NCBI RefSeq assembly: GCF_963921235.1
Contig: NC_086107.1
Location: forward strand, 103,790,001 to 103,854,000
Direction: 5' to 3'
DNA length: 64,000 nt
DNA from: Mobula hypostoma
Lineage: Eukaryota
The notes below the pieces were generated by a model. That model did no database searches and was not told the origin of the DNA. It saw nothing but the letters and a program-made list of their open reading frames with translations. The translations under genes and the position numbers were made by a program. How positions within the stretch are numbered: position 1 is the stretch's first letter; each line of letters starts with the position of its first letter. This document shows, one piece after another, positions 14,039 through 55,920 of this stretch.

Positions 14039-14663
14039 GTAGCTCCGGTGCCTCAGCCTGAACTTTGGGCCCGTGAAAGGTGCGGTTCTGCAGCCTGGGC
14101 TGCAAGTGCTCAGTCACATGAAAAAGATGTCCGCACCCCCAAGAGAGAAGATTAAAATTGCACCAGTCCGGCTGATACAGCGAGGAGGACCATCTGCCTG
14201 ACGTCTAGTACAATGAGCAGGAATGAACAACCACATCCTGATAACCCCAGCATGCAGCCTGTGATAATGTTGTTAAAGAATACGTCTATGAAATGTAAAA
14301 ATTGGGACAGGATTCTGCCAGAACTCTCCATTGTGAGAGATACCATGGTTTACTGATGACCTTCTAAATACCTGACTCAGCACCATTTCTCAAATCTGCA
14401 TTTCAGAACCCACCTACAGCGGAAGATGCCACTGCCCACAAGGCTAATCCCAGGGAAGGTTCTCCAAAATCCCTTGAGTTCAGGGTGATCATGGAGATTT
14501 ACTGCAAAGTCTCTGCTCAGTGTGACACAAGCCAGGGGCTACTGTTGGTTACTGAAGGGATGGCCTATACTTTCATCGGAAAGAAACCTTTCCTGTCCCA
14601 CTGCTGATCAGCGCACAAGGCATCTTACAGAAAGCTTTGAAGGCCTCCAGTGGCGTTTCTCTG

Positions 14664-16548: not shown

Positions 16549-16554
16549 TTTAAT
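16549..16554 (-). terminator. Candidate polyadenylation signal ATTAAA
   Basis: Followed on the minus strand by GT-rich ggtttgaggtgtcagaggtgtt, downstream of the stop at 16721. Confidence 0.4.
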
Positions 16555-16720
16555 TAGGCAGATAATGACAAGCGGTTCCAAAAGGGACGGATCTCAGCTT
16601 TGTCGCGGCTCATTGGTCAGTATTCTCTGCGTGGTGTAGTCAGTGTTAACTGGCACACCACAATGCTGGCAGTGCACGAGTCTATGTCCTTTCACTAGGT
16701 CCTCCAAAATGCTGTACAGT

Positions 16721-20500: not shown

Positions 20501-21284
20501 CCCACACACACACTGACCCTCACTGGGGGAACAGGTCACACACACACTGACCCTCACTGGGGGAACAGGTCCCACACACACACACACTGACTCTCACTGG
20601 GGGAACAGGTCACACAGACACTGACCCTCACTGGGGGAACAGGTCACACACACACACACTGACCCTCAATGGGGGAACAGGTCACACACACACTAACCCT
20701 CACTGGGGGAACAGGTCACACACACACACTGACCCTCACTGGGTGAACAGGTCACACACACACTGCCCCTCACTGGGGGAACAGGTCACACACACACACT
20801 GACCCTCACTGGGAGAACAGGTCACACACACACACTGACCCTCACTGGGGGAACAGGTCACATACACACACTGACTCTCACTGGGTGAACAGGTCACACA
20901 CACACTGACCCTCACTGGGGGATCAGGTCACACACATACTGACCCTCACTGGGGGAACAGGTCACACACACACACTGACCCTCACTGGGGGAACAGGTCA
21001 CATACACACACTGACCCTCACTGGGTGAACAGGTCACACACACACTTTCCTCACTGGGGGAACAGGTCACACACGCACACTGCCCCTCACTGGGGGAACA
21101 GGTCACACACACACACTGACCCTCACTGGGAGAACAGGTCACACACACACACTGACCCTCACTGGGAGAACAGGTCACACACACACACTGACCCTCACTG
21201 GGGGAACAGGTCGCACACACACTGACCCTCACTGGGGGAAAAGATCACACACACACACACACTGACCCTCACTGGGGGAAAAGA

Positions 21285-21324
<40 letters not shown>

Positions 21325-24300
21325 ACCCTCACTGGGGAAAAGATCACACACACACACACACACACACACTGACCCTCACTGGGGGAACAGGTCACACACA
21401 CACACTGACCCTCACTGGGGGAAAAGATCACACACACACACTGACCCTCACTGGGTGAACAGGTCCCACACACACACTGACCCTCACTGGGTGAACAGGT
21501 CCCACACACACACTGACCCTCACTGGGGGAACAGGTCACACACACACTGACCCTCACTGGGGGAAAAGATCACACACACACTGACCCTCACTGGGTGAAC
21601 AGGTCCCACATACACTGACCCTCACTGGGTGAACAGGTCCCACACACACACTGACCCTCTCTGGGGGACAGGTCACACGCTGATTCTAACTGGGATATTG
21701 GTTCCTTTACCAGGTGGTCCCAAAAGCTATCGTTGAAGTCAAATCTATAGCCAATTCAACGGCACAAAACTAATGGCTTTTGGGACCGCCTGGTCAAGGA
21801 AGCTAATTAAACTCCAGGAAAAGAATTTTAACAAAGACGAAGGTCTCACTCTGAAGTAAGAACTGGAATTTGATTGTACAAAAGGTGGAAGAGCAGAAAC
21901 CTGATTGGATGACGACTAACCAATCAGGAGGGATGGACGATGGGGGTATAAATACCACCGAACTAGACCTGCCCGGGAGTCAACCCTGAAGAAGATGGCA
22001 GAGTTTGTCATCGAAACGTCAGTTATAATCAATACCTGTACTCAGCTGGAAGCCTGAGAAGAGGTTAATTCATACAGCGTCTCGTCACACCATAATTGGC
22101 GTGGAAGTAAATAAGCACACCCACAAACACTCACACGACATGCAGATGTTAATTTTCACCTGTTCAACTGAGAGTTACCTTGCCAATATTCTAAGTAGGA
22201 AGCTCTGGGTGTGAAATGCAAGCAAACGAAGGAGATTTGGGTTAGTACAGCCGGCGACTGACAACACAACACTTCACACACTTGCAAAGCCAGGCAGCTG
22301 TGAAAAGGAGGGCAAGTTTGGAGCTCCCCAATACTGCCCCCCCCACTGTTAAAATCGACTCCAGTCCTTCCTGCCATCCAACTCCCCTAACTCACCATTG
22401 GTCAACTCATTGCCTGAGCCCACCTCCCCCGAAGGCGTTAACAAAACAAAAACGCTGGAGGAACTCAGAGGGTCAGGCACCACCGGTGGTGGGGAATGGA
22501 CAGTCAACGTTTCGGGTCGAGACTGTTCCTGCTCGTGCTCCAGATTCGCTGAACCTCGATACACTTGACAAAAAGAAACCAATTTTGTTTTGGAGGATTG
22601 TTGGCCGACCTTGGAGGTTAGGTCGCAAATGTTTCGTCGCTAGTCGAGGGGACATCGTCAGTGCACAATTAAGTATTGTTTCTGCTGGGTGCTTGTGCTC
22701 ATATTGGTTTGACTCGTTGTTCTGCGTGATCAGGACCAAGGAGTGAGCGCTGGACGTCTGAGGAACCAGCACTCACAATGACTGATAATCAGGGATACAG
22801 GCCGGTGGAGATCATTCAGCCTTCCAGTGGGCCAGGACCCAGTGCAGACCAGTAGCCAGCATGACAGCCAAACAATCAAAACGATAAGTCGGACGATTAT
22901 AAACACGAGCACTCGGCAGAAACAACTCAATTGTGCACCTCCACTGGTGGTGAAACGTTTGCGGTCCGACCTCCAGGTTCGGCCAACAACCCTACAAATG
23001 AGTAGCCAGTCTGAGCTACCAATCTCCCCTTTCGCTTCGATTCGCCAACCTATCTGCCATCGCTCGCCTCCGTTTTCCTCGCCTACCGAGAAGGCTCTTC
23101 GGGGTGTGCCCACCCTGCAGAAATGTCCTGCTCTCCCTGACCTGAGTTCTCCAAGACCCTCCCTCTCTGCGGGTCCCGCTCTCCAACCACACTCTCATGC
23201 AGGCTCACTGAACTGCCCAGACGAACGGTCCCAGCCCGAAACATCGACTGCCCATTTCCCACCACAGGTGCTGGGGTCCTCCTGCAACTTATCTGTTGCT
23301 GCGGATTCAAGCATCTCCAGACCCTGGTGCACCCTCCCCTCTCCCCACCGCTATAGGGTTACTCTGTCCGATAGTTACCTCACTCACCCAGTCCAACCTC
23401 TCCCACCTACAGTCTCCACTGCCCATTACCTGTTCCACCCCTCACCACAAAGAACCTGCCCTAAATTCCCCAGCAGACCCAACCTGAGGTCGTCTACTCC
23501 AGACTCCCTCAATACCACTACACCCACTCTCACTGACCAAATCCTTCCACTCGCTCTCTTCAGAAACTGCTCTGAAGTTTCCACTCCCCCGGGTGAGCCT
23601 CTCCATTCGTGCACCCTCCACCACCCCTTCCAACACCACAGAATAGAGTCTGCAATCTCCTGGAGCCCAGGTTGAGGGGTTGAGGAGTGGAGGGTGTTGG
23701 AAGAGGCGGAGTGGGTATGGGAGATAGAGGAGGATTTCCTTCCACAGTGCTGAATATTGACTCTCGCTCGTGAGGCTCTTTTTTGTTGCTGACGTCCCCT
23801 CCCTGGACTACCCCCCCCCGTCCCCCCGACCATTTCAAACACTGCAAAGTTCACTGCAGTCGAAACATCAAAGCCCAGGCACCTGGTGGGGAGCATTGGG
23901 AGATCAGCCCAGGATCCCGCGCGCTCGGTCCGGTTCCAGCCCAGGCAGCATTTCAGGCTACAGCAGAGAAGCTGCAGGAACTGAACACATCGTGACTTAG
24001 TAGCAGGCCCTGATTCCTTCCCAGCCCCCACCCCGAACCTAGCCCCGCGTGGGAAAGGCGTAGAGAGATACGGCCCAAATGGGGGCAGATGAGACTAGCT
24101 TAGACCGCAAAATGGAGGAGCAGAATTAGGCCCTTTCATCATGTCTGATCCATTTTCCCTCTCATCCCCAATCTCCTGCCTTCTCTCTTCACCCATTCAT
24201 GCCCTGAGCAATGAAGAACCCATCAATGACTTGGCCTCCACAGCCACCTGCGGCAACAAATTTTACAGCTTAGGTAAGCGTCTTGGTCCAAAGGGTCTGT

Positions 24301-25642
24301 TTCCATGTGAAATAGCCCCACCACCTCCCCTCCAACCATTCCACTGAACACCCCACAGTCTTCCACTTGAAACAGTAACTCTAGCTTCTCTTCCCGCAGA
24401 TGCTGACCGACCTGCTGGGTGTTCCCAGCATTTTATGTTTTTATTTCAGGTTTTCAGCATCTGCAGTGGGCTTTTCTCCCCTCAATTTTTCTCACACTGA
24501 ATCTGACCCCCACCCCCCAAGTCTCACTGTGCGCTCTCTGGGCCCCCTCCCCCATACGTGTCAGGCTTTCCATAGTGACTCACCTCTACCACAGTGATAC
24601 CAATGCAGATGATCGTTATGCTGATGACGTTTTCTTGCACCCACTCAAACACCCTCTTCCTGCAGCCCTGGGAAAGAAAGACAAAAAGCCCGGTCACCTC
24701 GGCAGCGTTTCCTTGCCCTCACCCGGCATTACCGCAGCGAACGGTGGGACCCTCAACTGCATTGATGCATGGAGGATCGTTGAGGTCCATTGCTCCCAGA
24801 CAGTGGCGGCTGAGGGAGATACGGACGTCGTAGGGCACACTTACTTTTATTAATCGGGGCACTGAGTTCTAGGGTCAGCAAACCAAGTTGCAGCTTTATA
24901 AAACTTCTGGTATCTCATTTAATTCTGGTCTCCACAGTATGGGAAGAAAGTGGAGGCTTTGGAGAGGTATACCAGGCTGCCTGGAGTAGAGGGCTGTGGT
25001 TTTGGGATGATGCAGATGAGAGGTCAGTTGGTCCCTTTCCAAAAGGAAATAGCCAGGACCTCCTGATTAGGATGATACTGTCCAGTGAGGCAGTATTTTT
25101 GCTCCCTTTTGGAACTACTTTTTTGTTCTATTTTTTATTATACCTTATAAATTTTTATCATATATTGCACTGTCCTTCTGCCACAAAATAGCAAATCACA
25201 CAGCATATGTCAGTGACAATAAACCTGATTCTGACTCACACAGTACTGTGCAAAAGTCTTTTAGGCACATATGTATAGCTAGGCTGCCTGAGACTTTTAT
25301 ACAGTACTGTAGTAATTTTATCTACTGCATTGTACTGCTGCCGCAAAAAAAAACAAAATTCATGACCCATGTGAGTGATGATAAACCTGATTCCGATTTA
25401 GGTTTCTATTCTGGACTGAGAGTGGGAAGGGGGCAGGGAGAGGGGAATCATGGTTGGGAAAAGGGGAAGGGAGAGGGGAGGGAGTGGGAAGCACCAGAGA
25501 GACATTCCATAATGATGAATAAACTAATTGTCTGGAATCAAATCATCTTGCCTGGTGTCTCAGAGCTAGGTTTGTCTGCACCCATGACCCCCCACACTAA
25601 CCCTGACACTCCTTCCTGTCCCACAGCCTTCCACCCTCACCA

Positions 25643-25686
<44 letters not shown>

Positions 25687-28600
25687 ATAGCTCTGGGCCT
25701 CTATTCGCTGGAATTCAGAAGAGTGAGGGGTGGATCGCATTGAAACCTATCGGATGTTGAAAGGCCTCGATAGAGTGGATGTGGAGAGAACATTTGCTAT
25801 GGTGGGAGAGTCTCGCACCAGAGGACACAGCCTCTGAATTAGAGGGGTGTCCTTTTCGAATGGAGATGAGGAAGAATTTCTCCAGCCAGTGGGTGGTGCC
25901 TCTGTGGGATTTGTTGCCACAGCGGATGTGGAAGCCAAGTCAGTGGGTGTATTTAAGGCAGAGGTTGATAGATTTTTGGTGAACACAGCAGGCCAGGCAG
26001 CATCTATAGGAAGAGGCGCAGTCGACGTTTCAGGCCGAGACCCTTCGTCAGGACTAACTGAAGGAAGAGTGAGTAAGGGATTTGAAAGCTTACTCACTCT
26101 TCCTTCAGTTAGTCCTGACGAAGGGTCTCGGCCTGAAACGTCGACTGCGCCTCTTCCTATAGATGCTGCCTGGCCTGCTGCGTTCACCAGCAACTTTGAT
26201 GTATGTTGCTTGAATTTCCAGCATCTGCAGAATTCCTGTTGTTTGATAGATTTTTGATTGGTTAGGGCATGAAGGGATTTGGGGAGAAGGCAGGAGACTG
26301 GGGCCAAGAGGAAGAATGGATCAGCCATGATGAAATGGCAGAAGAGACTCAATGGGCCGAATGGCCTAATTCTGCTTGTTTATCTTATATGTGTCTAAGG
26401 CTTTTACACAGAGCAGTATCCAGCCAGAACCCAGACTACTCTGGGGCAACAGTCTCTGATATTGAGTTGACTGGACTCTCAGCACCAACCCACCCATGCT
26501 GGTTCCAGGGATCGGTACATCATCAATTGCTGAAAAATTAACAGTCGGATGGACCTTTATCATTGGTGCATTTCCGATCGTCTCATCACAGGAAGGGTGT
26601 GGAGACTTTGAAGAGGGTGCGGGAGGTTTACTCGGATGCTGTCTAGGTTAGAGGGCACGTACTACATGAAGGATTCTCACAAAGTGGGTTTGTTTTTTCT
26701 GGAGGATCAGAGACTGAGGGGGGTCCTGATAGAGTTTGTAGGATTTACAACGGTTTTCTGGTTTGATTTAATATCAGAGAGCGTGTGCAGTTTACAGCCT
26801 GAAATTCTTACCCTTCACAGACATCCACAAAACAGGGGAAAAAACCCAAAGAATGAATGATGGACAACATTAGAACCTGAAGAACCCCCCACTCCCCCAT
26901 CAAGCTGCAGTAATGTGTCAATGCTCCCCCCTCACTTGCTCCAGAAAAAAATCAACCCCCTCCCCCAGGGGAAGCGGGGGAAGGAGGCTAGTTGGAAGGC
27001 AATAGGAGAAGCCAGGTGAGTGGGAGAGGAAGGAATCTGATAGGAAAGGAGAGTGGACCATAGGAGGAGGGGACCCAGGGGGAGGTGAGAAGGTAAAACG
27101 TCAGAGTGGGGACATTTAATTAGCCTGGCCTAACATTGTGGGTGAAGGGCCGCACTGCTCTACGTTCTGATCAAAGGGTAGACCCTGCAACCAGGCTCAC
27201 AGGACAGGGGGACAAGGTCAAGTTGAACAGAGACTGTCCCAGCCCAGACTAGTCCAACCCATTCAGAATCAAAACGAGAAGCTGTTGGAAATACTCAGTG
27301 GGTCAGTCTCCATGGGTGGGAACAGATAACATTTCAGGTTAAAGACCGTTCATTAGAAATGGAAGGAGGCAGAAGTTCGTTCACCTGTAAGGAAGGTGGG
27401 TGAGGGGAGACATTGCTGGTGGGGTGAAACCAGGGTGCATTTTCAATTGCAGCACCAACCTGCTAGAGGAACTCGGTAGATCGAGCAGCATCTGTGGGAG
27501 GGGGGCGGGTGGTTTACAGGAATCGTCCATGCTTGGATTCATACTGGAGTGGGAAGGAAGCTGCCCCTTTTCCCTCTCCTCTTTACACCGGCTTTCTTGC
27601 CTTCTTTCCCCTCTGCCGTCAGTCCCAATGGAGGGTCTCGATCCTAAACATCAACAACTCTCTTCCCCCACTCCCTCCCCACACACAGAGGCCGCTCACC
27701 CCGCTGAGTTCCTCCAGCACCTTTTGTTTTAGCTGACTCGTCAGGGCCCCCCCCCCCCCCCGCTCCGCTCCCCGCAGACGCCGCCTGGCCTGCTGAGTGT
27801 TCCAGCACCCTCTGTTTTTATCTCAGGTTTCCCCGCGGCTGCGGTCCCTTTCGATTTGCAGCCCATGGGCTCGAAGGTGAGGCCGGCACAGTCTGAGTCC
27901 GGGGAGCATTACCTGGGTCTTCTCCGTCAGTGGGCTGCTGCCAGGAGCTCGGCAGAACCCAACTTCCTGCGTGACGTTCAAGTCGGTGAAATTTTTGGAG
28001 AAAGAGCTGTGGCAGGAACACGGGAAGGGGAAGAACTGTTTTTCACTCGGCTCTGAAGCATTGCTTACAATGCTAGGGTTCTTCTGCCACTCCATAGAGT
28101 TGTTCCAGCCGCAACAAGCGAACTACAAAAGGGGGAAAAGGTTTCGTTCATTAAACATGGTACTCCATGGCTAGAACATGATGTGTCAGTCTGTGACTTT
28201 ACAGTAGCCCAACTATAAATGTTTAATTCCACTCATGAGCTGAAGTAAAGTTAAAAAAAAAACCCTCCCCACCCCCAAAGCTCCAGGGTAAAAATTAGCC
28301 CCTGCCCTGCAGAGACTTGTGTGGAATCACCCCCCCTCCACCCCACTACCAAACTGGCAAATCAATTTCGTACTGTCACACCTACCAAGGTACAGCGACA
28401 TAACTTGGATTTGCACGCTGCCCAACATCAGTACATCGAGTAAGTACAAGGGAAGAGAGCAAGCGCAGAGCGCAGAATAGAGTGTAGCAGTCACTAAGAA
28501 AGCACTGAGCTCGCTGTCAATAAGGTGCAAGGCATGACAAGGCAGATCCTGAGGGTGACAGTGCGTATTATCATACAAGCACTCTGCTTAATCGTTTCAC

Positions 28601-31600
28601 AAGTGCGGGATAGGAGCTGTCCTTCAGACCGGTGGTACAGGCTTCCAGGCTTTTGTGTCTTTTGCCTGATGGAAAAGGGGGAGAAGAGGGGATGCTAGGG
28701 GTGGGGGGAGTGGGATCGTTGCATTGACTGCTGCTTGTTGAACGCAAACTGCTGGAGAAACGCGATGGGTGGGGCAGGCCGTTCGCAGCAGCCCTACATT
28801 AATTTCATTTTATTTTAAAGATTGGCTTTACCCGCCGCGTGCGCGTCGAAGCGCCGGATGCGCCGAGGACCGGCACGGTCCGAGGGTGTGCTGGGGGCGG
28901 CCCGCAAGTGTCACTAGGCTTCCCGCGCCAGTATAGCACGCTGCGCACCCCACTCCCGCTGACCCACACAGCCTCGGAATGTGGGAGGAAACGGGAGCAG
29001 CCGGAGCAATCCCACCCGGTCACGGGGAGGCGTTCGGGCAGCGGCGGGAATTGAACCCCCAGTCGCTGAAGTTGTGCAGTGTTACACTGACCACGGTGCT
29101 ACTGTGATGCCCTTCTGCATTCCTCAACAGCACCCGTCCGAGTTTACCACTCAGCCACATGCTAGAGGCTACACACAGCAACCAACTAATCTCGCAGCCT
29201 GCCCACCCACCTTCCCCCTCGAGTGGTCTCATCTGCCGGCTTCTATTCTTTCCCCTCCCCCCCCCAACACACTTATTCTGGCTTCTGCCACCTTCCTTTC
29301 CAGTCCCGACGAAGGGTCTCAGCCTGAAATGTTAACTGCTTATTCTCCTCCGTAGACGCCGCCCGACTGACTGAGTACTTGCCGCATTTTGTGTGTGTGT
29401 TGCTCGAGTTCCCCAACGTGCCCTGAATCTCTCTCTGCTCACAACCTACCGATCAATGCGCTTTCGGGACGTGGGAGGGACCCAGGGGAAGTCCACACGG
29501 TTACAGGCAGAGGATGCAAACTCCACACAAACAGCGCCGGAAGTCAGGTTGGACCCGAGGTCCATGGCGCGGCGGGAGAGCGGCCCAACGCCGTACCACC
29601 GTGCAGACCCGCAATGAAGACAGTCCGTGTCTCAGGCAACTGCTAGCCTTGCCAAGGAAGACCATATTTCCCAAATACATTTTTTAAAAACCCTCATCTG
29701 GAAGGAATGTGCTTGCAATTTTTCCCTCCGCGCCGCCCATTCTCCTGCCCAACGTACGTAACTGAGCAAAGTGTCCATCCATTGAAAGGTCAGGGATTCA
29801 GCCTGCAGGATCTACCCTGGGCCCTACACTTTGATGCAATCACGATGAAGACATGGCTGCAGCTCTACTTCATTAGAAGTTTGAGGAGATTTGGTAATGT
29901 CAGCAAAGACTCCAAGCAAAATGTCTGCACAGAGGTGGAGAGCACTCTGCTGGCTGCAGGAACCTGCAGAGGGTTGTAGACCTAACCAGCTCCCTCATGG
30001 GCACAGGCCTTCCCTCCATCGAGGCTATCGTCAGAGGGCAATGCCTCAAAGAGGCAATATCCATCATTAAAGACCCTCACCCTCCAGGACATCCCCTCTT
30101 CTCATTACTTCCATCAGGGAGGAGCTACAGGAGCCCGAAGACCCACACCCAGTGTTTTAGCAACAGCTTCGTCAGATTTCTGAACGGTCCATGAACCCCT
30201 GAAAGTTACCTCGCTCTTTCTCTTTTGCACTTTTTTATTGTAAATAATTTTAATCTTATCATGTCTTGCACCGTACAGCTGCCACAAAACAACAAACTTC
30301 ACAGCACATCACCGAGGATCTCACGTGGCCTGTACATACCGGCTGTGTGGTGAAAAAAGCACAACAGCACCTTTCACCTCAGACGGTTGAAGAAGTTTGG
30401 CATGAGTCCCCAAATCCTAAGGAGTTTCTACAGGGGCACAATTGAGAGCATCCTGACTGGCTGCGTCACTGCCTGGTATAGGAACTGTACTTCCCTCAAT
30501 CGCAGGACTCTGCAGAGAGTGGTGCGGACAGCCCAGTGCATCTGTAGACTTCCCACTATTCAGGACGTTTACAAAGAGAGGTGTGTAAAAAGGGCCCGAA
30601 GGATCATTGGGGACCCGAGTCACCCCAACCACAGACTATTCCAGCTGCTACTATCCGGAAAACGGTACCGCAGCATAAAAGCCAGGACCAACAGGCTCCG
30701 GGACAGCTTCTTCCACCAAGCAATCAGACTGATTAATTCATGCTGATACAATTGTATTTCTATGTTATACTGACTGTCCTGTCGTACATACTATTTATTA
30801 CCAATTACTATAAATTGCAGAGTGCACATTTAGACAGAGACATAACGTAAACAATTTTTACTCCTCATGTATGTGAAGGATGTCTGTAATAAAGTCAATT
30901 CAATTCTGCCGTTGTTGACAACAGGAATTCTGCAGATGCTGGAAATTCAAGCAACACACATCAAAGTTGCTGGTGAATGCAGCAGGCCAGGCAGCATCTC
31001 TAGGAAGAGGTGCAGTCGACGTTTCAGGCCGAGACCCTTCGTCAGGACTAACTGAAGGAAGAGTGAGTAAGAGATTTGAAAGTGGGAGGGGGAGGGGGAG
31101 ATCCAAAATGATAGGAGAAGACAGGAGGGGGAGGGATGGAGCCAAGAGCTGGACAGGTGATTGGCAAAGGGGATATGAGAGGATCATGGGACAGGAGGTC
31201 CGGGAAGAAAGACGGGGGGTGGGGGGGGACCCAGAGGATGGGCAAGAGGTATATTCAGGGGGACAGAGGAAGAAAAAGGAGAGTGAGAGAAAGAATGTGT
31301 GTATAAAAATAAGTAACAGATGGGGTATGAGGGGGAGGTGGGGCATTAGCGGAAGTTAGAGAAGTCGATGTTCATGCCATCAGGTTGGAGGCTACCCAGA
31401 CGGAATATAAGGTGTTGTTCCTCCAACCTGAGTGTGGCTTCATCTTTACAGTAGAGGAGGCCGTGGATAGACATGTCAGAATGGGAATGGGATGTGGAGT
31501 TAAAATCTGTGGCCATTGGGAGATCCTGCTTTCTCTGGCGGACAGGGTGTAGGTGTTCAGCAAAGCGGTCTCCCAGTCTGCGTCGGGTCTCGCCAATATA

Positions 31601-46600: not shown

Positions 46601-46722
46601 ACACACAAATAGCTACAAACACACACACAGCTACAAAGATACAAACACACACACAAAGATACAAACACACACACACAGCTACAAAGATACAAACACACAC
46701 ACAAAGATACAAACACACACAT

Positions 46723-46758
<36 letters not shown>

Positions 46759-49700
46759 CTACAAAGATACAAACACACACACAAAGACACAAACACACAC
46801 AAATAGCTACACACACACAGCTACAAAGATACAAACACAAACACACACACACACACAGCTACAAAGATAAAAACACACACAAAGATACAAACACACACAC
46901 ACAGCTACAAAGATACAAACACACGCATGCACACACACACACACACACACGAATGCAATTCAGAACTCTTATAAAACCACTCCCACTCACAGTACCTACC
47001 TGATCCATAAGGGACAAGAGTCTCTCACCAGACTAGACTCTCCCTGCCCACCCCTCCCTGCTGCTCCAGGGATCATTAATTACCAAAAAAATAACATTGA
47101 TCACTTTCTCTGATAGAGGCTGGCAGATTTTTAGCACTCGGGGCATTGTGTGCAGTTCTGGTCACCCCATTACAGGAAGGATGTGGAGGCTTTGGAGAGG
47201 GTGCAGAGGAGTGTTACATGGAGAATGGGGCACTTGACTGCTCATTCCCTCTGTCACTGAATAAGATCAAGGCTGGACATTTCCCACAGTGAGGCTTTCC
47301 TTCAGTAACTCCACGTCCTGTAGGATGTTGAAGAGCACGGCATAAGAACTGACCCTTTGGGTGATGAGTTCTGCACCAAACACAATGCTGAATCCAACCA
47401 ATTCCCTTCTGCCTGTACGTGATCCTTTCTTCTTAATGGTTCGGTGTCTGTATCTGGGTGTCAGCATTCTAGCCCAACCCTAACTGGCCTCCGGAAGGTG
47501 ATGGTGCACGTTGAGTTGGTCGGGTGAACAATTGTTTTCTCTGTGCTGCAGATCACGGTCTGCCTGTTGCTTGCTTGGTGGGTGGTGGGTTCTGATCTTT
47601 TTTTGCTGAAATGAGTGGGGGGGAGGAGGAGGGGGGAGAGTTGATGCTTTGCTGCTGCTTGTGCGTGGGAGGGAGGGATTGGGGAGGGCCTTTGGGGTTT
47701 TAACGTTTTTACTGTCACTCATTCTTTGGGGTACTCCTCTGTTTTTGTGGATGTCTGTGAAGAGTAAGAATTTCAGGTTGTATACTATATACATTCTCTG
47801 ATATTAAATGGAACTATTGAAGTATTGAGCCTCCCTGAGGGGCTGCTGAGCGTGCGATGAAGGAATCCCCCACAACACTGTTGGGGTGGGAGTTCCAAGA
47901 CCCCAGAATACAGAAAGGCTGGTCACGATTTCCAGTCGCCACGGTGCGTGACCAGGAGGGCGTCGTGCAGACAGTGGTGATCCCCTGCCCCCCCGTTACC
48001 CTCATCCTTCTTGGGGGTAGAGGTCACAAGTGTAGAAGGTGGCTATCAGACTACCCCAGGCAAGTCACTCTGCAGCCACAGATGAGTGCTCAGGGGTGTT
48101 GATGATGTGTCAGCCAAGTGGGCTGGATTGTCCTGGATGGGATTAACCCTCTTGAGAGCCGCTGGTGGTGCGGGCACCCAGGCTACCGGAACGCATTCCT
48201 TAACACCCCAGACTCATGCTTTGTAGATGATAGGCAGGCGTTGGGGTGTCAGGAAGTAAGTCAGTCACTGTACGATACCCAGGCTCTCCACCTTCCCCTG
48301 TAAGTGATGTGGCTGGTCCAACTGAGATTCGGGTCAATGAAAGGCAAAGATAGAGTGAGCATGGAGAGGATGTTTCCTGTAGTCTAGGCCTAGAGAGCAC
48401 AGCCTCAGAATACAAGGGCATCCCTCCACAGCAGACATGAGGAGGAATTTCTGGGGCCAGATGGTGGTGAATCTGTAGAATTCATTGCCACAAGTGGCTG
48501 TGGAGACCAAGTCATTGGGAATATTTAAAGTGGAGGCTGATAGGTTCTCCATTAGTCAGGGCATCAAAAGTTACAGGGAGAAGGCAGGAGAGTGGGGTTG
48601 AAAGGGATAATAAATCAGCCATGTTGGAATGGCTGAGCAGACTCGATGGGTTGAATGGCCTAATTTTGGTTCAAAGTCTTTATGGTCTTCTGGTCTATAT
48701 ATACAAAGGTCGATCAATCCGTAGACCCACAGACCAAACTCCCAACCCTTGCCAGCCTGTCACACACTGGAGAGTGGTGAATCTGTGGAATTCAGTGCCA
48801 CAGGCAGCTGTGGAGGCCAATTAATTGGGTACACTTAAAGCAGAGGTTGATAGGTTCCTAATTAGTCAGGGCATCAAAGGTTAAGGGGAGAAAGCAGGAG
48901 AATGGGGTTGAGAGGGTTAATAAATCAGCCATGATGGAATGGTAGAGCAGACTCGATGGGCCGAATAGCCCAATTCTGCTCCAATGACCTATGGTGACCC
49001 CATTCCTCACCCCCTCAGGACATTGACGGTGGGAGGTCTGACGAAAGTTGGTGGTTAGGTCCTCCCTTCTCAGAAATGGTGACTGCCTGGTACTTCCCTG
49101 GCACAAGTGCGACCGATGGCTTACAAGCCCAAGCCTGGATGTTCTCAAACCTTGCTGTATGTGGGCTTGAGCTGCTTCGTTTGATGAGGAAATGTAAATG
49201 CTATTGAATATCGTGCCTGCTTCTGGTCGTATGATGGAAGGAAGATCATTGATGAAACAGCTGAAGGTGCTTGGGACGAGGAACAAGGATCTCCTGCAGT
49301 GATGTCCCAGAGCTGGAACTATTGGCCTCCAACAACCACAGCCATCTTCTCTTATGTAAAGGACAACCCCTTTGATGACCATTGACCAGTTTTACCAGAT
49401 CCTGGCAAAACCCAATCTGGGCATCAGTGAGCTGGGCTTTGGGGAGTAAATGCCAGTTGAATTCAACGATGACTTCCATCTGATGATGTCTCTCTCACAT
49501 GGTGACAAAGCGTTTGCAGATGGATTGCCAAGATGGGAGAACAACTCAACTCAAACCTTCAACCACTGAGTTACACATTTTCCGAGTTACTTACAATGAC
49601 CTTTCACTTTACTGAAGGTCAAGAGGAGATGGATTGGGTGGCGGTTAGTCAGATTGGATTTACAAAGCATAGTACATGGAACAGCACGGTGTAGGCCCTT

Positions 49701-52700
49701 CAGCCCACCTTTAACTTAATCCAAGAGCAATTTAACCCTTCTCTCGCACACAACCCTTCATTTTTCTTTCATCTTTGTGCCTATCTAAGAGTCTCTTAAA
49801 GGCCTCCTAATGTGTCTGTCTCCACCACCACCCTCATTAGTGTGTCCCGCGCTCTCCGGGTAAAAACACCTACCTCTGATATGCCCCCTATACTTTCCTC
49901 CAAACGCCTTAAAAGTATGTCACCTCACATTAGCCACTGCTGCCCTGGGAAAGAGGCACTGACTATCCACCTTAACAATGCCTCTTATCGTATTAGACAT
50001 CTCTGTCAAGTCACCTCTCATCCAGCTTTGCTCCAAAGAGAAAAACCCCTAGCTTGCTCAATCTTTCCTCATAAGACATGGAAATGTCAAATCTCCTCTG
50101 CACCCTCTCTGACCCCTGTCTTGCTTTCTGTGAACAGGAAGAGCCTGGGCATTTTCCACAGTGTTGGCTGGATGCCGGTGTTGTAACCGCACTCGAGTAA
50201 CTTGGCTCTAGGCACAGCCCATTTCTAGAGTCAGGGTGCTGCCCGGTGCCACAGTCTCTGCTATCTCCAGCACTCTCAGTGGATCCAACCCCGCACTTCC
50301 GCTGGAGCCTCGACACCTCGGTCCTGTGCATCGCTCTCACATTCTTGGAAATGAAGAGGTCCCTGGTGACAGGTCCACCGCCACACGGGGACTGGACGCG
50401 GCTCGGACTGACTGAGCCTCACTCTGATTGTTGGCTGTGAAGTGACTTTGCTGCATCAACTGCTAACTGTGTCTATTCCCTTTTATATTCTCAGCATCTT
50501 GATAAAACCCTCTGCATCTTCTCTTAGTGGTGTCACATCCTTCCTGTGGTGGGGGAGCTGGAATTTACCAGCTGCGGTCGAACAATTGCAAGTTTAACAT
50601 ATTCTCTCTGATCTGGCACTCCAATGATGGCAGAGAGCTGGTATATGACATCCCTAACCGTCTAAACCTACCTGTCCAGGGTTAGTCGCTCTCATTCCAC
50701 ACGTGCCAACAAACTTACCCCACCCCCCTCTCCAATTATCTTAGCCCTGCCAGTACTCTGGCATGGATGGCTGAGGGTGTCAAGGCTCATAAAGCACCTG
50801 AACAGGCCTTCGGTCCATGTCTGCACCAACAATTAAGTTGTATATATATTACTACAGTACTCCGCAGAAGTCTTAGGCACCCTAGCTGTATATATCTGCC
50901 CAAGACTTTTGCACAGCACTAATCTTGCTTGCCAGCACTTGGTCTGTCACGTCGTATGCCTTGGTGATTGAAGTCCTTCAGGGTTGTGAGAGAACCTGTC
51001 TCCACTGCTGCCCCTCAGGGAGAGCAAGTCCAGCTCCCCACCGTCCTCTAAGTGCAAAGGTGTTCTTCCTGAGGTCCCCTCTAAACTTGCCACCCCAATC
51101 TAGGACAACGTCAGCAACTCAGATACGCCAACAGAAAGAGTGAGAAGGATTCAGGCCAACGGGGGACACGGGCCGCTCGTTCTACTTACCCAGCACTGCA
51201 ATGAAGCTCGTTTTGTCAATAAGAATCCAAAGGCCAAAACCCAACATCACTCCGCCCAGGAACTGCAAAGGGTTAAAAAGGAGGGATCAGCTCGCAATTG
51301 CTTCACATCCAGTGCCAGCGCTTAACACCAAAGTTTGACAGCCTGCACTCGCTGGAGTTTAGAAGAACCAGGAGGGAAACCTACCGAGTATTGAAAGGCC
51401 TAGATAAGAGTGGACGTGGAGAAGATGCTTCCTGTAGTGGGGGAGTCTAGGACTAGAGGGCACAGCCTCTGAAAACAAGAGCATCTCTTTAGAGATGAAG
51501 AGGAATTTTTTTAGCCTGAGGGTGGTGAATCTGTGAAATTTACGGCCACCGATGGCTGTGGAGGCCAAGTGATTGGGTATTTTAAATTGGTTAGTCAGGG
51601 CATCAGAGGTTACAGGGAGAAGGCAGGAGAATAGGGTTGAGAGGGAAAATAAATTAATCACGATGGAATGGCGGAGCAGACTCAAAGGGTTAATTACGGT
51701 CTCGCGGCCTAAAGCAGAGTAAGTGTCTTCTGGCTTTACATGGGTTCAGCTGAGGTGTTCAGGAACACCCTGTTAGCTGGTAAGGTCAAGTTCAAAGCTA
51801 CACCACAGCAGGAGAATGATTCCCAAACACCAGTACCTGGCTACAGGCCTCAAACAGCTTTGGTGGGCCAACAGATCTACACCAAACTACCCAGCCACCT
51901 CCCCATCTTCTGAACAAATTGCCACGATTCAGTCAATGTCCCTGTACCGCCGAGACACGGAACCCTGCAGCTGCTAGAATCGGGAGTGAAAACAGAAAAA
52001 AAAAACTGCTGGAGGAACTCAGGGGGTCAGGCAGCATCTGGGGAGGCAGAGGGACAATCGGCGTTTCAGGTCTGCATTTGGACTGTCCTGTCTCTGGGCG
52101 TAGTCAGTGTGAGTGGAGATGAGAGTATAGCTCCCTCTACACTGTCCCAGCAAATGCCCACAGGACAGGGGCAGGCCTAGTTGGATTCAGAGTGAAGCTC
52201 TCGCCATACCAGGGGTTCCCAACCTTTTTTCATGCCATGGACTGATGCCATTAAGCAAGGAGTCCGTGGACCTCAGGGAACCCCTGCTCTGTACCGTGCC
52301 ATCACAAACTCACAGGGACAGGAGTATGGGTTAGGAGGAGAAATGGAAGAAAAGGGTTGAACATGGAGCAGAGGTGTTTTATCGCAATCCTGGCACACAC
52401 TTGCAGCTCAGGGAGAAGCAGGGGTAAAGAACTGCATGGAGAAGTGATGCGGAAGATTGTGACATCAGAACAGCGAGGTGCTGGTCTCCGCTCTCGTTGT
52501 TGCACGAGCGACCTCTCTCTCCCTCGCTGGAGATACCAAAGGGCTGGGTTATGGACTCTAGTTCAGGATCTCTTTTGGGGGGCTTTTGCTATTGCTTGCG
52601 TGGTGGGAGAAGGGAGTGGGGGGGGTCAGTGTTTCTGCTGGTGCGTTAGTAGTGGGAGGGGCGTGTCGATTATTCTGCGGCTGCTTGTGCGTGGGGCGGG

Positions 52701-52987
52701 GGCTTTTGGGTTCTGATGTTACCATTATTCATTCGCTGAGGAGTTTCTTGTTTCGTGGATGTCTGTGAAGAGTAAGAATTTCAGGTTGTGTACAGTACAC
52801 ATTCTCTGATATTAAATTGAACGATTTGAACATTGCCCACATACTCCCAGGGCACAGAGCGTACAGGTTAGACAGAGTAAAGCTCCCGCCAGACCACCCC
52901 TCAAGCCTGAATGATACTTACAAAGAAAAAGAGGTTGAAGATAAACAAGAAATACTTTGTGATAGCGATACAGCTTTTTGAAGCCAT
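16721..52987 (-). CDS. cd37: Tetraspanin, CD37/CD82 subfamily (CD37-like); spliced CDS join(52987..52922, 51262..51190, 44726..44602, 38213..38139, 35886..35779, 28122..27913, 24667..24584, 17530..16721), ~516 aa
   Basis: Exons of 66/73/125/75/108/210/84 nt have GT-AG ends and compatible phases. They join into one [158 protein letters not shown]...PCSC...GFCRAPG...[28 protein letters not shown]. Motifs DKTSF, VPLxxWS, GIFTM, QITxGxLxxTQR, SWDY and ISIxxICxG resemble CD37 as I recall it. The last exon and the CD37 versus CD82 call are less certain. Confidence 0.88.
16757..17330 (-). repeat. 60/57-bp tandem repeat, ~10 units, encoding [20 protein letters not shown]
   Basis: Unit starts at 16757, 16817, 16877, 16934, 16994, 17051, 17111, 17171, 17231 and 17291; the only length variants are 3-nt deletions. 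Confidence 0.95.
17631..18361 (+). mobile_element. Non-autonomous Tc1/mariner element with transposase N-terminal remnant and a nested insertion (~18152-18325)
   Basis: TA|CACCCAGTGGCCACTTTATTAGGTA ... TACCTAATAAAGTGGCCACTGAGTG|TA; encodes [35 protein letters not shown] (Tc1 HTH-like). Confidence 0.9.
18712..21680. repeat. ~3-kb compound minisatellite: ctgaccctcactgggggaacaggtc + (ac)n, roughly 75-80 units
   Basis: Directly visible; an internal block is repeated at offset 1560 (19352 vs 20912). Confidence 0.97.
21702..22070 (+). mobile_element. Penelope-like 3' end / pseudo-LTR with short 5' inversion
   Basis: 29-bp inverted repeat (21702-21730 / 21773-21801), then CCAAT- and TATAAATA-like motifs followed by the hammerhead. 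Confidence 0.6.
21982..22024 (+). ncRNA. Hammerhead motif of a second Penelope-like family
   Basis: aacc-CUGAAGA-a-gauggcag-agu-uugucauc-GAAACGUC-aguu: 8-bp stem II, one mismatch in stem I. Confidence 0.62.
22588..22998. mobile_element. Inverted pair of Penelope-like terminal repeat fragments
   Basis: 22588-22700 is a diverged reverse complement of 22895-22998; the left arm keeps the hammerhead core and the right arm has lost it. Confidence 0.6.
22625..22664 (-). ncRNA. Degenerate hammerhead motif of a third family
   Basis: gca-CUGACGA-u-guc...gac-GAAACAUU-ugc. Confidence 0.5.
24584..24667 (-). CDS. cd37: Coding exon 7 (EC2 end and TM4)
   Basis: tttttgtctttctttcccag|[28 protein letters not shown]|gtgagt; 84 nt; has the GC motif and the TM4 glutamate. 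Confidence 0.95.
25241..25309. mobile_element. ~70-bp palindromic Tc1-like MITE (second copy at 50855-50920)
   Basis: cagtactgtgcaaaagtct...agacttttatacagtactg|ta. Confidence 0.65.
26019..26056 (-). ncRNA. Minimal hammerhead motif, mirror copy, sense to the cd37 pre-mRNA
   Basis: Exact reverse complement of 26110-26147. Confidence 0.72.
26110..26147 (+). ncRNA. Minimal type I hammerhead ribozyme motif (Penelope-type)
   Basis: uaguc-CUGACGA-a-gggu-cucg-gccu-GAA-ACGU-C-gacug: stem I, conserved core, stem II, palindromic stem III and GUC cleavage triplet. Confidence 0.75.
27913..28122 (-). CDS. cd37: Coding exon 6 (EC2 variable region: CCG, PCSC, GFC)
   Basis: ttttgtag|[70 protein letters not shown]|gtaatg; 210 nt; N-glycosylation sequons NNS, NAS, NFT, NVT. 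Confidence 0.93.
30308..30905 (+). mobile_element. Rex1/Babar-type non-LTR retrotransposon 3' end
   Basis: Encodes [30 protein letters not shown]...[18 protein letters not shown]; ends with aataaa and (caatt)n. An older related fragment lies at ~29800-30305. Confidence 0.8.
30919..31648 (-). mobile_element. 5'-truncated Penelope-like retroelement: GIY-YIG endonuclease C-terminus plus 3' repeat with hammerhead
   Basis: ORF remnant [31 protein letters not shown]...[22 protein letters not shown]; flanked by a 13-bp direct repeat ctgccgttgttga / ctgctgttgttga (30906-30918, 31649-31661). Confidence 0.9.
31013..31050 (-). ncRNA. Minimal hammerhead motif in the Penelope 3' repeat
   Basis: Same 38-nt motif, ~300 nt downstream of the GIY-YIG stop. 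Confidence 0.75.
32728..33187 (+). mobile_element. tRNA-derived CORE-like SINE with a duplicated 3' end
   Basis: A box TGGCCAAGTGG (32735) and B box GTTCGATCC (32780); CORE-like tgtgtccttgagcaaggcacttaa; 125-bp direct duplication 32922-33046 / 33063-33187. Confidence 0.8.
34010..34450 (-). mobile_element. Penelope-derived short element (degenerate)
   Basis: Same terminal sequence (gaactcagcaggccaggcagcatct...) and purine tract as the other copies. Confidence 0.65.
35779..35886 (-). CDS. cd37: Coding exon 5 (EC2 helices A/B)
   Basis: cttcctcgtcctcactcag|[36 protein letters not shown]|gtgaga; 108 nt; WDYxQ motif. Not in the ORF track. Confidence 0.95.
36680..37250 (+). mobile_element. CR1 LINE 3' fragment (similar ones at ~38420-39080, 43380-43770, 48335-48990, 51340-51710)
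   Basis: Encodes [38 protein letters not shown] and has the shared 3' tail. Confidence 0.8.
38139..38213 (-). CDS. cd37: Coding exon 4 (TM3)
   Basis: gttcccag|[25 protein letters not shown]|gtgagt; 75 nt; has the polar Q of TM3. Confidence 0.95.
39680..40045 (+). mobile_element. RTE-clade LINE 3' end
   Basis: Encodes [18 protein letters not shown]...FIGHVIRK...[13 protein letters not shown]...W, stop, then a (TGA)n tail. Confidence 0.85.
40265..40343. mobile_element. ~80-bp hAT-type MITE (other copies at 36576-36655, 52210-52286, partial ~2165-2227)
   Basis: Ends c(a/g)gggg...ccaacc / ttgggaacccctg; 8-bp TSD ctctgcac / ctctacac. Confidence 0.75.
42230..42930 (+). mobile_element. Degenerate Penelope 3' fragment
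   Basis: Encodes [10 protein letters not shown]...[16 protein letters not shown]; pyrimidine tract; hammerhead-like motif at 42796-42833. Confidence 0.75.
43778..44338 (+). mobile_element. Second copy of the same Tc1-derived element
   Basis: Same TIRs and a body colinear with 17631-18361. Confidence 0.88.
44602..44726 (-). CDS. cd37: Coding exon 3 (TM2 and inner loop)
   Basis: ttccccaccag|aa+[41 protein letters not shown]|gtaagt; 125 nt; carries the tetraspanin GFLGCxGAxxExxCxL signature. Confidence 0.96.
45373..46119. repeat. 33-bp minisatellite ccttcacagagtgagaacaacatgggaaaagat, ~22 units
   Basis: Directly visible, with 30- and 32-bp variant units and an internal block duplication at offset 359. 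Confidence 0.96.
46260..46950. repeat. CA-rich compound minisatellite (acacacacagctacaaagatacaa)n
   Basis: Directly visible. Confidence 0.93.
51190..51262 (-). CDS. cd37: Coding exon 2 (TM1 end and EC1)
   Basis: ctttgcag|[24 protein letters not shown]+g|gtaagt; 73 nt, phase-1 end. Confidence 0.95.
52922..52987 (-). CDS. cd37: Coding exon 1 (N-terminus and start of TM1); the exon begins at 53003 with 16 nt of 5'UTR
   Basis: Acceptor ctttatcttttgtcttgcag; ATG in strong Kozak context gagATGG; encodes [22 protein letters not shown]; donor gtaagt. Confidence 0.95.
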
Positions 52988-55140
52988 CTCTGATAATGTG
53001 CTCCTGCAAGACAAAAGATAAAGATCAGATTGTCAGTAACGTTCTGGAGAGTAACAAAGTGTGGAACTGGAGAAATTACACAACTCAGGGGAGAGAGGGG
53101 AAGCAGGTCCAAAAACCATGAGATGGGTATCTTGGTCTGCATCGACAAGAGGGGCTGAAGGGCCAGTTTCTGGATTCCATGACCACTACAGCTCATTTAT
53201 ATAGATTGTATGGTCACACCTCCCTTGTTTTGCGATCCAGCTGCACGTGCTTCCTGAAGGGAAACTGGGTTGATTGGATGTGACTCACTGTGTGAGCCCT
53301 GGGAATGCCGAGGGTTATTCTACAAACTGCAGAGCAACTCCCAAGCCACAGGTATTTCACATCAACAGCTTAGAAATTCCTGCAACGCCTGGAGCTTAGG
53401 CTCGACGCTCGGGGCAGCTGTGCACCACAGGCTGCCTCAGACACGCGTCCATCCGTGCCGATCCCAGTGGGTCCAGAAACCCAAGCAGCTGAGCAACACT
53501 AAATTGGCACTGGAGGCAATATGCTGCCCAAAGTGAAGCCTGCTGCTGGGGATGGGAACATGGATGGTCGAGCTTGGGTGATCGGGGAATTCAGGAGTGA
53601 GATCAGTGCAGGGATTGGGCTTGGGGAGATCTGGGGGGGGGGAGACCAAAATATTCCAAGGCCAAGTCTAAGGTTGACTTGTGTGGGCTTCCACTCCAGC
53701 ACCAACCTGACTCCCCCACCCCCCCCGAGTCATCATCATCATCTGTCGTGTTGTATGACATCATCACTATGCGCCATATTGCCTATCGTGGGAAAACATG
53801 GTCCCATGACCATGATTGTTCTTGGCAAAATTTTTTGACAGGTTTGCTATTGCCTTCTTCTGTGCGGTGTCTTTACAAGATGGGGGACTCCAGCCATTAT
53901 CAATACTCTTCATTGTCTGCCTGGCATCAGTGATCACGTAACCAGGACTTGTGATATACACCGACTGCTCATACGACCATCCGCCACCTGCTCCCATGGT
54001 TTCACGTGACCCTGATCGGAGGGGAGGCACTAGGCAGGTGCTACACCTTGTCCGAGGGTGACCTGCAGGCTAGCGGAGGGCTAGCAGAGGGAAGGAGCAC
54101 CATACACCTCCTTTGGTAGAGACACATCTCCACCCCAACTTCCTGATAACTCCCACAAATTCCCTACACAGTGCTCTGAAAGGAGCAAGTGTCATAACGT
54201 GCGTAGCATGTCATGTTTAGAATGCACAGATTGAAATCACTAGTTGAATTCATAGTAAGGAGCAATTCCATCTGGAAATGGTCATGTTCCGCACTGGAAA
54301 GAAACTGATTTGCTAACACCGAGCACTGTAGAAGACTGCAAAATAAATTCAAATTTCTTGCACTGCATGCGTTACCAGAAGTAGTTCCAACATCATCTCC
54401 CACTCTCCGGGGAGGGAGCCTGTGCTCAGCACTGTCTCCCTGCTATCCACCCACACGAAGGGGTGGACCGGTGTTAGATTAGTAGAATAAGCCAGGCCCT
54501 TCAGCCCAACCCTCCCATGCTGACCAAGATACCCAAATGAGGTTGCCCCACCTGCCCTCATTTAGCCCACGTCCCTCTAAATATTCCCCAGCTATCCAAG
54601 TATCTTCTAAATACTGGTGGCACAAGAGATTCTGCAAGTGCTGGATATCGCCAGCAAGACACATAAAAATGCTGGAGGAACTCAGCCACCATGGAGAAAA
54701 ATGAGCCGTCAACAAGGGTCTCGGCCCGAAACGTCGATGGTTTATTTCCCTCCATGGATGCCGCCTGACTTCCTGAGATCCTCCAGCATTTTGTACGCAC
54801 TGTTCTTCAAAGGCGTTACGGCATCTGACTCAACTAGTTGCTCCAGCAGCTCGTTCTGTATATGCACCTTCCTTTGTGAAAAGGAATTGCCCCTCAAGTC
54901 TCTTTTAAGTCTTCCCCCGCTCACGTTAACCCCCTGCCCACTCGTTCCGGATTCCTTCTCCAGGGACAAAGACCGTGTACATTCAAAAGACGAGTTGTGT
55001 ACACAGTGCTGATGTATTACTGCCACATGTGTCAATGGCTTTCATTTGTATGACACCCAGACAGATCATTCTGTATACATGGACGTCAGAGCAGTAGAGA
55101 GAATGCAGAACAACACGCATAAAATGCCGGAGGAACTCAG

Positions 55141-55179
55141 CAGTCCTGATGAAGGGTCTCGGCCCGAAACGTCGACCTG
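55141..55179 (+). ncRNA. Minimal hammerhead motif
   Basis: caguc-CUGAUGA-a-gggu-cucg-gccc-GAAACGUC-gaccug. Confidence 0.7.
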
Positions 55180-55304
55180 TACTCTTTTCCATAGATGCTG
55201 CCTGGCCTGCTGAGTTCCTCCAGCATTTTGTGTGTGTTGCTCGGATTTCCAGCATCTGCAAATTTCCCCTTGTTTGTGAAAGAATACAGAATAAACACGA
55301 GAAT

Positions 55305-55920
55305 GTCTGTGTATGCTGGAAATTCAGAGCAACACGCACAAAATGAAGGAGGAACTCAGCAGGTCAGGCAGCAGCTATGGAAATCAATAAACGGTCGACA
55401 TTTCTGGCTGAGACTCTTCTTCAGGACTGGAGAGGAAAGGGGAAGACGCCAGAATAAAGAGGTAGTGGGAGAGGGGAGGGAAGCTAGCCGGAAGGTGATA
55501 GATGAAGCCAGGCGGGTGGGAAAGGTTAAGGGCTGGAGACAAAGCGATCTGATAGAAGAGGAGAGTGGAGCACAGGAGAAAGGGAAGGAGGAGGGGACCA
55601 GGGGGAGGTGATAGGCAGGTGCGGAGAGGTGGAAGGAAGAGGGGAGGGAGAGACTGTTTTTTTTAAGCATCAGAAGGAGAAATTGATCTTCATGCCATCA
55701 GGTTGGAGGCCACCCAAATGGAATACAAGGTGTTACTCCTCCACTCTGAGGGTGGCCTCATCTTGGCATAAGCAGCGGCCGTGGACCGACACGTTGGAAT
55801 GGGAATGGGAATCAGAATTGAAATGTTTGGCCACCGGGAAGTCCCACTTACAGCGGACGGAGCCAAGACGCTCGACGGAGCGGACCCCAATTTAATGACG
55901 GGTCTCATCAATGTAGAGCT
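55305..55920 (-). mobile_element. Degenerate Penelope 3' fragment
   Basis: Colinear with 30919-31648; degenerate hammerhead at ~55392-55429. Confidence 0.75.

Follow-up and report, generated by a model that had tools for sequence, protein, structure and literature searches.

We analysed a 64,000-nt stretch of the Mobula hypostoma genome (NCBI RefSeq assembly GCF_963921235.1, contig NC_086107.1, positions 103,790,001 to 103,854,000; the window hereafter, numbered from its first letter), in which the introns of a minus-strand gene for a CD82-like tetraspanin carry repeated minimal hammerhead ribozyme motifs. We found that these motifs very probably lie in the pseudo-long terminal repeats (pLTRs) of 5′-truncated, often folded-back copies of Penelope-like elements, and that they are likely inert relics, which leave the host pre-mRNA uncut. 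An initial annotation of this DNA had described Penelope-type minimal hammerheads of three families, and three families with unrelated stems (A, B and C) are indeed present, of which A is shown, and B and C are inferred, to be of Penelope origin. It had also proposed that the common short repeat is a non-autonomous Penelope derivative and that its minus-strand copies could dimerise in cis, neither of which was borne out.

The window was searched with a descriptor of the minimal type I hammerhead, and 200 dinucleotide shuffles of 21400-56000 served as the control. Five matches were found, all within 21400-56000 (core C3 at 26115(+), 55146(+), 31045(-), 26051(-) and 22661(-)), and four of the five hold an ACGU palindrome, compared to a mean of 0.005 matches (maximum 1) and 0.0 palindromic matches in the shuffles. 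As a further chance control, a tail-anchored core-plus-spacing pattern was run on metagenome contigs, where it matched 73 loci, only one of them with both stems. Since the shuffle and metagenome controls yield almost none, the hammerhead motifs are not due to chance. None of the 73 metagenome matches was related to family A by blastn, and a scan of viral contigs with the family-A motif gave no match. One metagenome match (L005:1053-1119(-)) combines a full core, a 7-bp stem II and the ACGU palindrome with a stem I of just 2 bp, and is possibly an unrelated animal minimal hammerhead.

Named by the first position of each motif, the copies at 26110, 26019, 31013 and 55141 had been called intact. 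All four have the full core (CUGANGA, one extra nt, stem II, GAAA-CG-UC and stem I), but stem I of 55141 is only 3 bp long. The core boxes CUGANGA and GAAA...UH are also complete in 42796, 55392, 21982 and 22625, and are broken or absent in the remaining 10 aligned family-A copies. The ACGU sequence (15.2-16.2) that replaces helix III is kept in 26110, 26019, 31013, 55141, 42796 and 21982, and is lost in 22625 and in five of the 10 full-span family-A copies. The 10.1/11.1 pair is G-C in 55141, 21982 and 22625, and G.U in the three young family-A copies. All seven copies that had been named as decayed (23213, 27620, 29301, 34072, 42796, 54715 and 55392) were found in the sequence. The covariance-model route that had been suggested for confirming the motifs returned no hammerhead family at either setting: Rfam gave no match in the window at the gathering threshold and, in E-value mode over 21000-57000, 19 sub-threshold matches, mostly to hairpin-driven miRNA models. 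The folding z-score was rejected as evidence for a ribozyme, three of four monomers being no stabler than shuffles (z -0.35 to -0.59; 21982, z -2.34). In the best fold of the monomers 31013-31050(-), 26110-26147(+) and 55141-55178(+), the GAYG of the CUGAYGA box pairs with the CGUC at the cleavage site; in these models, such an inactive fold could be an off state for single motifs.

We then examined the sequence around the family-A motifs. On the minus strand, the 31013 copy reads as a GIY-YIG remnant, a stop, about 300 nt of pyrimidine-rich untranslated region (UTR), the hammerhead and a 100-nt tail, and the remnant scores above the Pfam cut-off (PF01541 at 31346-31768(-), E 7.5e-05), in agreement with the annotation of a nuclease remnant directly upstream of this motif. 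One such copy had been described; tblastn detected further GIY-YIG remnants at 55676-55918(-), 61% identical to that of 31013, and at 42180-42512(+), each upstream of a family-A hammerhead (55392 and 42796), and the 34072 copy extends to the last codons and stop of the endonuclease (EN) open reading frame (ORF). A protein search with the remnant gave 21 relatives among 78 candidates, the closest being P0004 (Mobula hypostoma, 422 aa, 93% identity), followed by six proteins from rays, sharks and a skate. In the relatives P0004, P0008 and P0009, the nuclease is preceded by YIDD and a C-x4-C-x2-C linker, the window copies being truncated, and P0008 has GIY-YIG above and RVT_1 below the cut-off. 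A search of a protein cluster atlas returned solely HTH_animal/RVT_1/GIY-YIG clusters, and a PDB search with P0008 returned nothing. According to PMC8557442, a zinc-finger-like CX2-5CxxC linker between reverse transcriptase (RT) and EN marks Neptune and Nematis elements. Hence, family A appears to derive from an autonomous Neptune/Nematis-type RT-EN element. At the protein level, the residues read through at the C-termini of P0009 (Stegostoma, a shark) and P0023 (a eukaryote-like record) would also allow for a hammerhead-like sequence after the same GIY-YIG domain.

The anatomy of the insertions was read from a family-A alignment of 16 stretches, with 3′ ends taken from 15 copies and arms and target duplications sought at 12 sites. 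Four head-to-head family-A fold-backs were found, with junctions at four different places, and each of the four pairs a long arm with a short arm. The 3′ ends cluster at about +67 and about +100 from the predicted cut (about 34 nt apart); earlier-ending arms stop at +47 (26019) and near +58 (54715), and in 23213 decay is too advanced for the end to be placed. Target duplications were found at four of the 12 sites (31013, 26k, 45k and, ambiguously, 55.1k, with scores of 10, 13, 11 and 8), while only two of 150 random window pairs scored at least 8. They measure 13 bp with one mismatch around the 31013 insertion (30906-30918 / 31649-31661), 14-16 bp around the 25977..26242 fold-back, which sits in a fragment like a long interspersed nuclear element (LINE) (25965-25980 / 26243-26258), and 14 bp with one mismatch around the 45046..45221 fold-back (45031-45044 / 45219-45232). 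The intact duplications and the 97% identity of the young copies point to recent insertion. Penelope-like insertions are described as having an inverted pLTR copy, a one-sided tail of 30-40 bp and a target duplication (PMC8557442, PMC3846280), and an inverted copy, a one-sided tail and a target duplication are also seen in the family-A fold-backs. The fold-backs with a long and a short arm, three of them with duplications of about 14 bp, form a possible footprint of two-strand priming at two RT start sites.

Table 1. Hammerhead motifs, element copies and host-gene features of the window (positions in the window; strand as read).
Feature	Position	Strand	Description
Intact minimal hammerhead	26110-26147	+	Antisense to host gene; predicted cut after 26142
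Intact minimal hammerhead	26019-26056	-	Sense to pre-mRNA, intron 6; predicted cut after 26024
Intact minimal type I hammerhead	31013-31050	-	Sense to pre-mRNA, intron 5; predicted cut after 31018
Hammerhead, full core, 3-bp stem I	55141-55178	+	Predicted cut after 55173
Young family-A insertion	30918..31648	-	5′-truncated GIY-YIG ORF end, pyrimidine-rich 3′ UTR, hammerhead, long tail
GIY-YIG endonuclease remnant	31349..31651	-	93% identical to P0004
Young family-A fold-back	25977..26242		Head-to-head; 101-nt arms, 99% complementary; long tail on right arm, short on left
Family-A fold-back, absent from the initial annotation	45046..45221		Junction inside hammerhead
Old family-A fold-back	54622..54792		Direct arm begins at stem II, so CUGANGA box absent
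Fold-back with 55141-55178 hammerhead	55108..55276	+	Short inverted arm, long direct arm
Older family-A copy	42180..42930	+	GIY-YIG remnant, UTR, long tail; hammerhead 42796-42833 with full core, stem II broken
Older family-A copy	55295..55918	-	GIY-YIG remnant, UTR, long tail; hammerhead 55392-55429, stem II and palindrome broken
Older family-A copy	34007..34435	-	Short tail; core with 4 mismatches
Decayed family-A copy (29301)	29210..29413	+	Antisense to gene; 1.6 kb downstream of 31013 in transcript
Heavily decayed family-A copy (27620)	27600..27730	+	4 core mismatches; placed by alignment, missed by blastn
Decayed family-A copy (23213)	23159..23321	+	
Decayed family-A fragment	22441..22528	-	
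Decayed family-A fragment	24388-24466	+	
Decayed family-A fragment	41240-41333	-	
Decayed family-A fragment	51959-52070	-	
Family B, old head-to-head fold-back	22589..22998		Arms 60% complementary
Family C	21702..22060	+	Fold-back 21702-21801, short frameshifted ORF remnant, then hammerhead
CD82/CD37-like tetraspanin host gene	15741..53003	-	tblastn of P0001 and P0002
Host coding exons (approximate)	53003-52922, 51262-51190, 44726-44602, 38213-38139, 35886-35779, 28122-27913, 24667-24587	-	
Alternative last exons of host gene	17533-16724, 15818-15741	-	First from P0002

Three blastn rows were not counted as copies: those at 56979-57285 and at 58606-58789, which are pyrimidine/purine-rich (61-63%), and 26967-27096, which covers UTR only.

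We next looked at how the family-A copies have decayed. In the alignment, 75.2% of stem cells pair, compared to 16.7-43.7% in slid controls. No two-sided change was seen in any of the nine stem pairs among the 16 window copies, a comparison of decaying copies of one window with little power, and the covariation score (0.136) was below the shuffled mean (0.169). The statement that the stems differ and yet pair therefore applies between the three families but not within family A, where stem covariation was not found. Conservation was counted over the 10 rows that span the motif, which include three near-identical young copies: matches to the majority were 100/110 in the core, 140/160 in the stems, 244/288 in the tail and 15/20 in the palindromic CG. 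The CG is thus the most decayed part, mostly by CG to TG or CA changes (CpG-type decay). Within the coding span of the host gene, the 14 listed fragments are seven sense and seven antisense. This decay pattern and the 7:7 orientation are what neutral decay predicts, in a small sample.

The family B hammerhead (about 22624-22665(-)) matches the descriptor and has unrelated stems, as had been noted, but its palindrome is broken by ACAU in place of ACGU and its stem II has only 3 contiguous bp; the second arm (about 22930-22975(+)) has lost the CUGANGA box and kept ACGU. Likewise, the family C hammerhead (about 21982-22020) has unrelated stems, with 7 bp in stem II, and keeps the ACGU palindrome, but fails the descriptor, with C.A as the first stem-I pair. 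We take the family C remnant to resemble the C-terminus of a Poseidon-type EN, although the database search found nothing.

The transcriptional setting was established by tblastn with the Mobula hypostoma CD82-like protein P0001, which placed eight minus-strand coding exons from 53003 down to 15741, with exon cores 100% identical and GT/AG read at the splice sites; a 58-aa stretch at 44530-44703(-) is 100% identical to P0001 across the aligned part. Minus-strand copies within 15741-53003 are therefore sense to the host gene and part of its pre-mRNA, as had been stated. Copies do lie in introns inside this span, but those at 54715-55429 are upstream of the first mapped coding exon. This exon opens at a splice acceptor and does not contain the first residue of P0001, which implies an additional upstream exon, and, within the limited set of patterns searched, donor-like sites able to supply that residue occur only at 60810-61044. 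Because of this arrangement, the 54715-55429 copies likely lie in a leader intron of the tetraspanin gene.

Family-A sequence was also found in sequencing-run contigs. Of 22 runs listed, none recorded as RNA, the contigs of four were compared with 27850-31700 at 80% likeness, and depth was not taken as expression or copy number. The matching contig records numbered 16,520, 15,679, 641 and 16,775 in the four runs (in X1, 16,520 of 1,140,919 for the family-A region, over the whole stretch), and contigs span the nuclease remnant plus the hammerhead and tail. No variant inside the hammerhead was found among the contig variant rows listed, and the table of piled-up contig ends was empty, a result that does not bear on cleavage. 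In X5, a contig with an opposite-strand joint at 31006/31048 is consistent with another fold-back junction at a different locus, and a 314-nt contig fits exon 27912-28124 alone, as a spliced mRNA would.

We considered whether the sense copies 31013, 26019 and 22625 could dimerise in cis and thereby cut the CD82-like pre-mRNA. The copies 31013 and 26019 are intact, sense and identical over the 38-nt motif, and a nested fold with 5-bp stems I and an AACGU helix can be drawn for them. In a dimer, stem I is formed by the 5′ strand of one motif paired with the 3′ strand of its partner; in 22625, which has lost the palindrome, the first stem-I pair with family A is mismatched in both directions, so that only 31013 and 26019 remain as a dimer pair. 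These two, however, are 4,994 nt and one exon apart (introns 5 and 6), and the transcript already contains the complement of 26019 (101 bp, 99%) when 26019 itself is reached. On the gene strand, 25960-26250 is predicted to fold with -229.1 kcal/mol, leaving the core with an unpaired probability of 0.000-0.001. The 31013 copy would meet stronger antisense partners first, with predicted duplex energies of -152.3 with antisense 29301 and -308.6 with 26089-26242, both transcribed before 26019. As free 38-nt units, the dimer favours the inactive fold (-30.3, against -11.5 for the active dimer, -11.0 for each inactive monomer and -80.2 for the sense/antisense duplex). The sole intact same-strand pair is thus predicted to be closed by nearby inverted copies. 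Minimal hammerheads do cleave weakly as dimers in vitro (PMC4209133), but eight of nine Xenopus retrozyme dimers went without in vitro cleavage and one cleaved (10.64898/2026.07.22.740005), and taken together we regard cutting by a cis dimer as extremely unlikely. A related possibility is that 31013, as a lone sense copy, pairs with another family-A RNA in trans, or is assisted by the element protein, and so cuts intron 5 at a low rate; this can coexist with the insertion anatomy described above. The copy is young, intact and without an immediate inverted arm, family-A sequence occurs on many run contigs, and the hammerhead of the Anolis element cleaved only when the element's protein was added (PMC11167929). 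Yet antisense copies in the same transcript pair with it far more strongly, sense copies are not depleted, and the Anolis RNA sequencing data had no reads beginning or ending at the cut site (PMC11167929). Hence, such cutting seems improbable to us.

The short repeat could instead be a self-amplifying non-autonomous element, a fold-back similar to a retrozyme or a miniature inverted-repeat transposable element, mobilised in trans by a Penelope protein. Many copies are short and without ORF sequence, thousands of contigs in the related runs span the hammerhead-tail part, pLTRs suffice for trans mobilisation in rotifers (PMC3846280), and animal retrozymes derive from pLTRs (10.64898/2026.07.22.740005). 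However, four copies run into the EN ORF, the 5′ ends of the short copies are scattered, the four fold-back junctions differ, and the contigs span the EN part too. The 17 tandem-repeat rows in 14500-64000 are all free of hammerheads, by which family A was ruled out as retrozymes. Because four copies reach the EN ORF and the four junctions differ, the short family-A repeats would be independent truncation and inversion products and not one non-autonomous family, for which we see little likelihood.

Several observations weigh against the reading of the motifs as inert ends of truncated Penelope-like copies. Conservation is slightly higher in the core than in the tail (91% compared to 85%, both inflated by the three young copies). 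The RT is absent from the window, and the parent element was deduced from protein relatives. No convincing target duplication was found at eight of the 12 tested sites, and that of 55108..55276 (a possible 14 bp with two mismatches) has an ambiguous boundary. Protein searches with the 44-46 aa open stretches of family C gave two candidates, neither significant, and those of family B three unrelated repeat proteins, with no link to Penelope. The contigs cannot show RNA ends. Nearest-neighbour energies omit the tertiary contacts of the core and Mg2+, so that -11.5 kcal/mol understates an active hammerhead, but the modelled gap to the 101-bp helix is too large for the omitted contacts to matter.

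Minimal hammerheads have been described in Penelope pLTRs, with many families per genome, single truncated copies and close opposite-strand pairs (PMC4209133). The window motifs are similar in having a type I core, an extra nt between 9 and 10.1, no stable helix III, a palindromic 15.2-16.2 and a short helix I; several unrelated families occur in one genome, and mostly single motifs lie in truncated elements, with close opposite-strand pairs. Family A differs in its short, 4-bp stem II and in the G10.1.U11.1 of its young subfamily. With the EN-containing Neptune/Nematis-type elements (Craig et al. 2021, PMC8557442; Arkhipova et al. 2013, PMC3846280), it shares a C-terminal GIY-YIG, the Cys-rich linker (in its relatives), 5′ truncation, an inverted head-to-head copy, a one-ended tail and a target duplication, whereas the window holds 3′ ends alone, and its duplications are 13-14 bp compared to 8-10 bp in the rotifer examples. 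The Anolis carolinensis Poseidon element PAc (Frangieh et al. 2024, PMC11167929) likewise has two preferred 3′ ends downstream of its hammerhead, which delimit a tail, but it belongs to another clade and differs in sequence, and the two ends seen here were read from 15 copies or arms of one window. Non-LTR retrozymes (PMC7229834; 10.64898/2026.07.22.740005), which a 2026 preprint reports in one chondrichthyan genome (10.64898/2026.07.22.740005), also carry type I hammerheads and derive from pLTRs, but they are head-to-tail tandem repeats of a fixed unit, and the window copies are dispersed, variable in length and often inverted. The amniote intronic hammerheads (RECK and others; PMC6155905) are also type I, but single, conserved and canonical, in contrast to the repeat-borne, decaying window motifs that lack helix III. 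A literature search on Penelope elements and hammerhead ribozymes in sharks and other Chondrichthyes showed no description of the ray family A; Repbase or supplements may hold it.

The PAc enzyme nicks and extends both strands and uses two RT start sites in vitro (PMC11167929), and by analogy both-strand nicking of this kind would explain the fold-backs. We propose that an autonomous Neptune/Nematis-type RT-EN element would nick both target strands about 14 bp apart, and that reverse transcription would be primed at two internal sites of the element RNA, as in vitro for the Anolis element. Copying would halt early, leaving most insertions with the pLTR end only, and joining of the two arms would give the fold-backs. 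The ribozyme may work, if at all, in the tandem transcript of the parent, either as a same-family dimer or with the element protein. Sense copies in the host pre-mRNA would be expected to pair with the antisense copies into long double-stranded RNA, and not to assemble an active dimer.

Other repeats were noted in the window. An 11-kb array of a 33-nt unit occupies about 2600-14050, with higher-order spacings of 100, 133, 200 and 233, and intronic minisatellites lie at 18717-21678 (36 nt, 83 copies), 45372-46119 (33 nt, 23 copies) and 46254-46950 (CA-rich units of 20-48 nt). A weak tRNA match at 32733-32795 (Rfam, below the gathering score) heads an apparent tRNA-derived short interspersed nuclear element (SINE), and a perfect 141-nt tandem duplication follows the SINE-like stretch (32922-33187). 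LINE-like 3′ fragments of one family lie at 25740-26390, 36690-37240, 38420-39080, 48330-48990 and 51380-51700. Two related stretches with short inverted ends, at 17620-18360 and 43790-44330, resemble what we take to be decayed Tc1/mariner-type DNA transposons. In the tetraspanin gene, the alternative last exon at 16721-17533(-) holds a 60-nt coding repeat (9.6 copies, a 20-aa unit), and the version in the Hypanus protein P0002 is much shorter; hence, this repeat tail is expanding, and it stands in for the usual short cytoplasmic end.

If intact Penelope hammerheads were numerous enough in ray genomes for single intronic sense copies, such as 31013, to meet a trans partner or the element protein and to cut host pre-mRNAs, with the fold-backs acting as an antisense brake, which we consider unlikely, the orientation and spacing of copies would tune intron cleavage transcriptome-wide, and the genome would preserve, in the long- and short-arm fold-backs, a trace of two-strand priming from two RT start sites. 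Trans or protein-assisted cutting of host introns, if shown, would to our knowledge give these minimal ribozymes their first in vivo activity. The in vivo role of Penelope hammerheads is described as unsettled (PMC8557442, PMC11167929), and the young, abundant ray family is a usable test bed for it, although this locus bears no sign of host use. In summary, a ray family is added to a known class of elements, and its insertion footprints, namely the 13-14 bp duplications, the two tail ends and the long and short fold-back arms, agree with the mechanism seen in vitro for the Anolis element.

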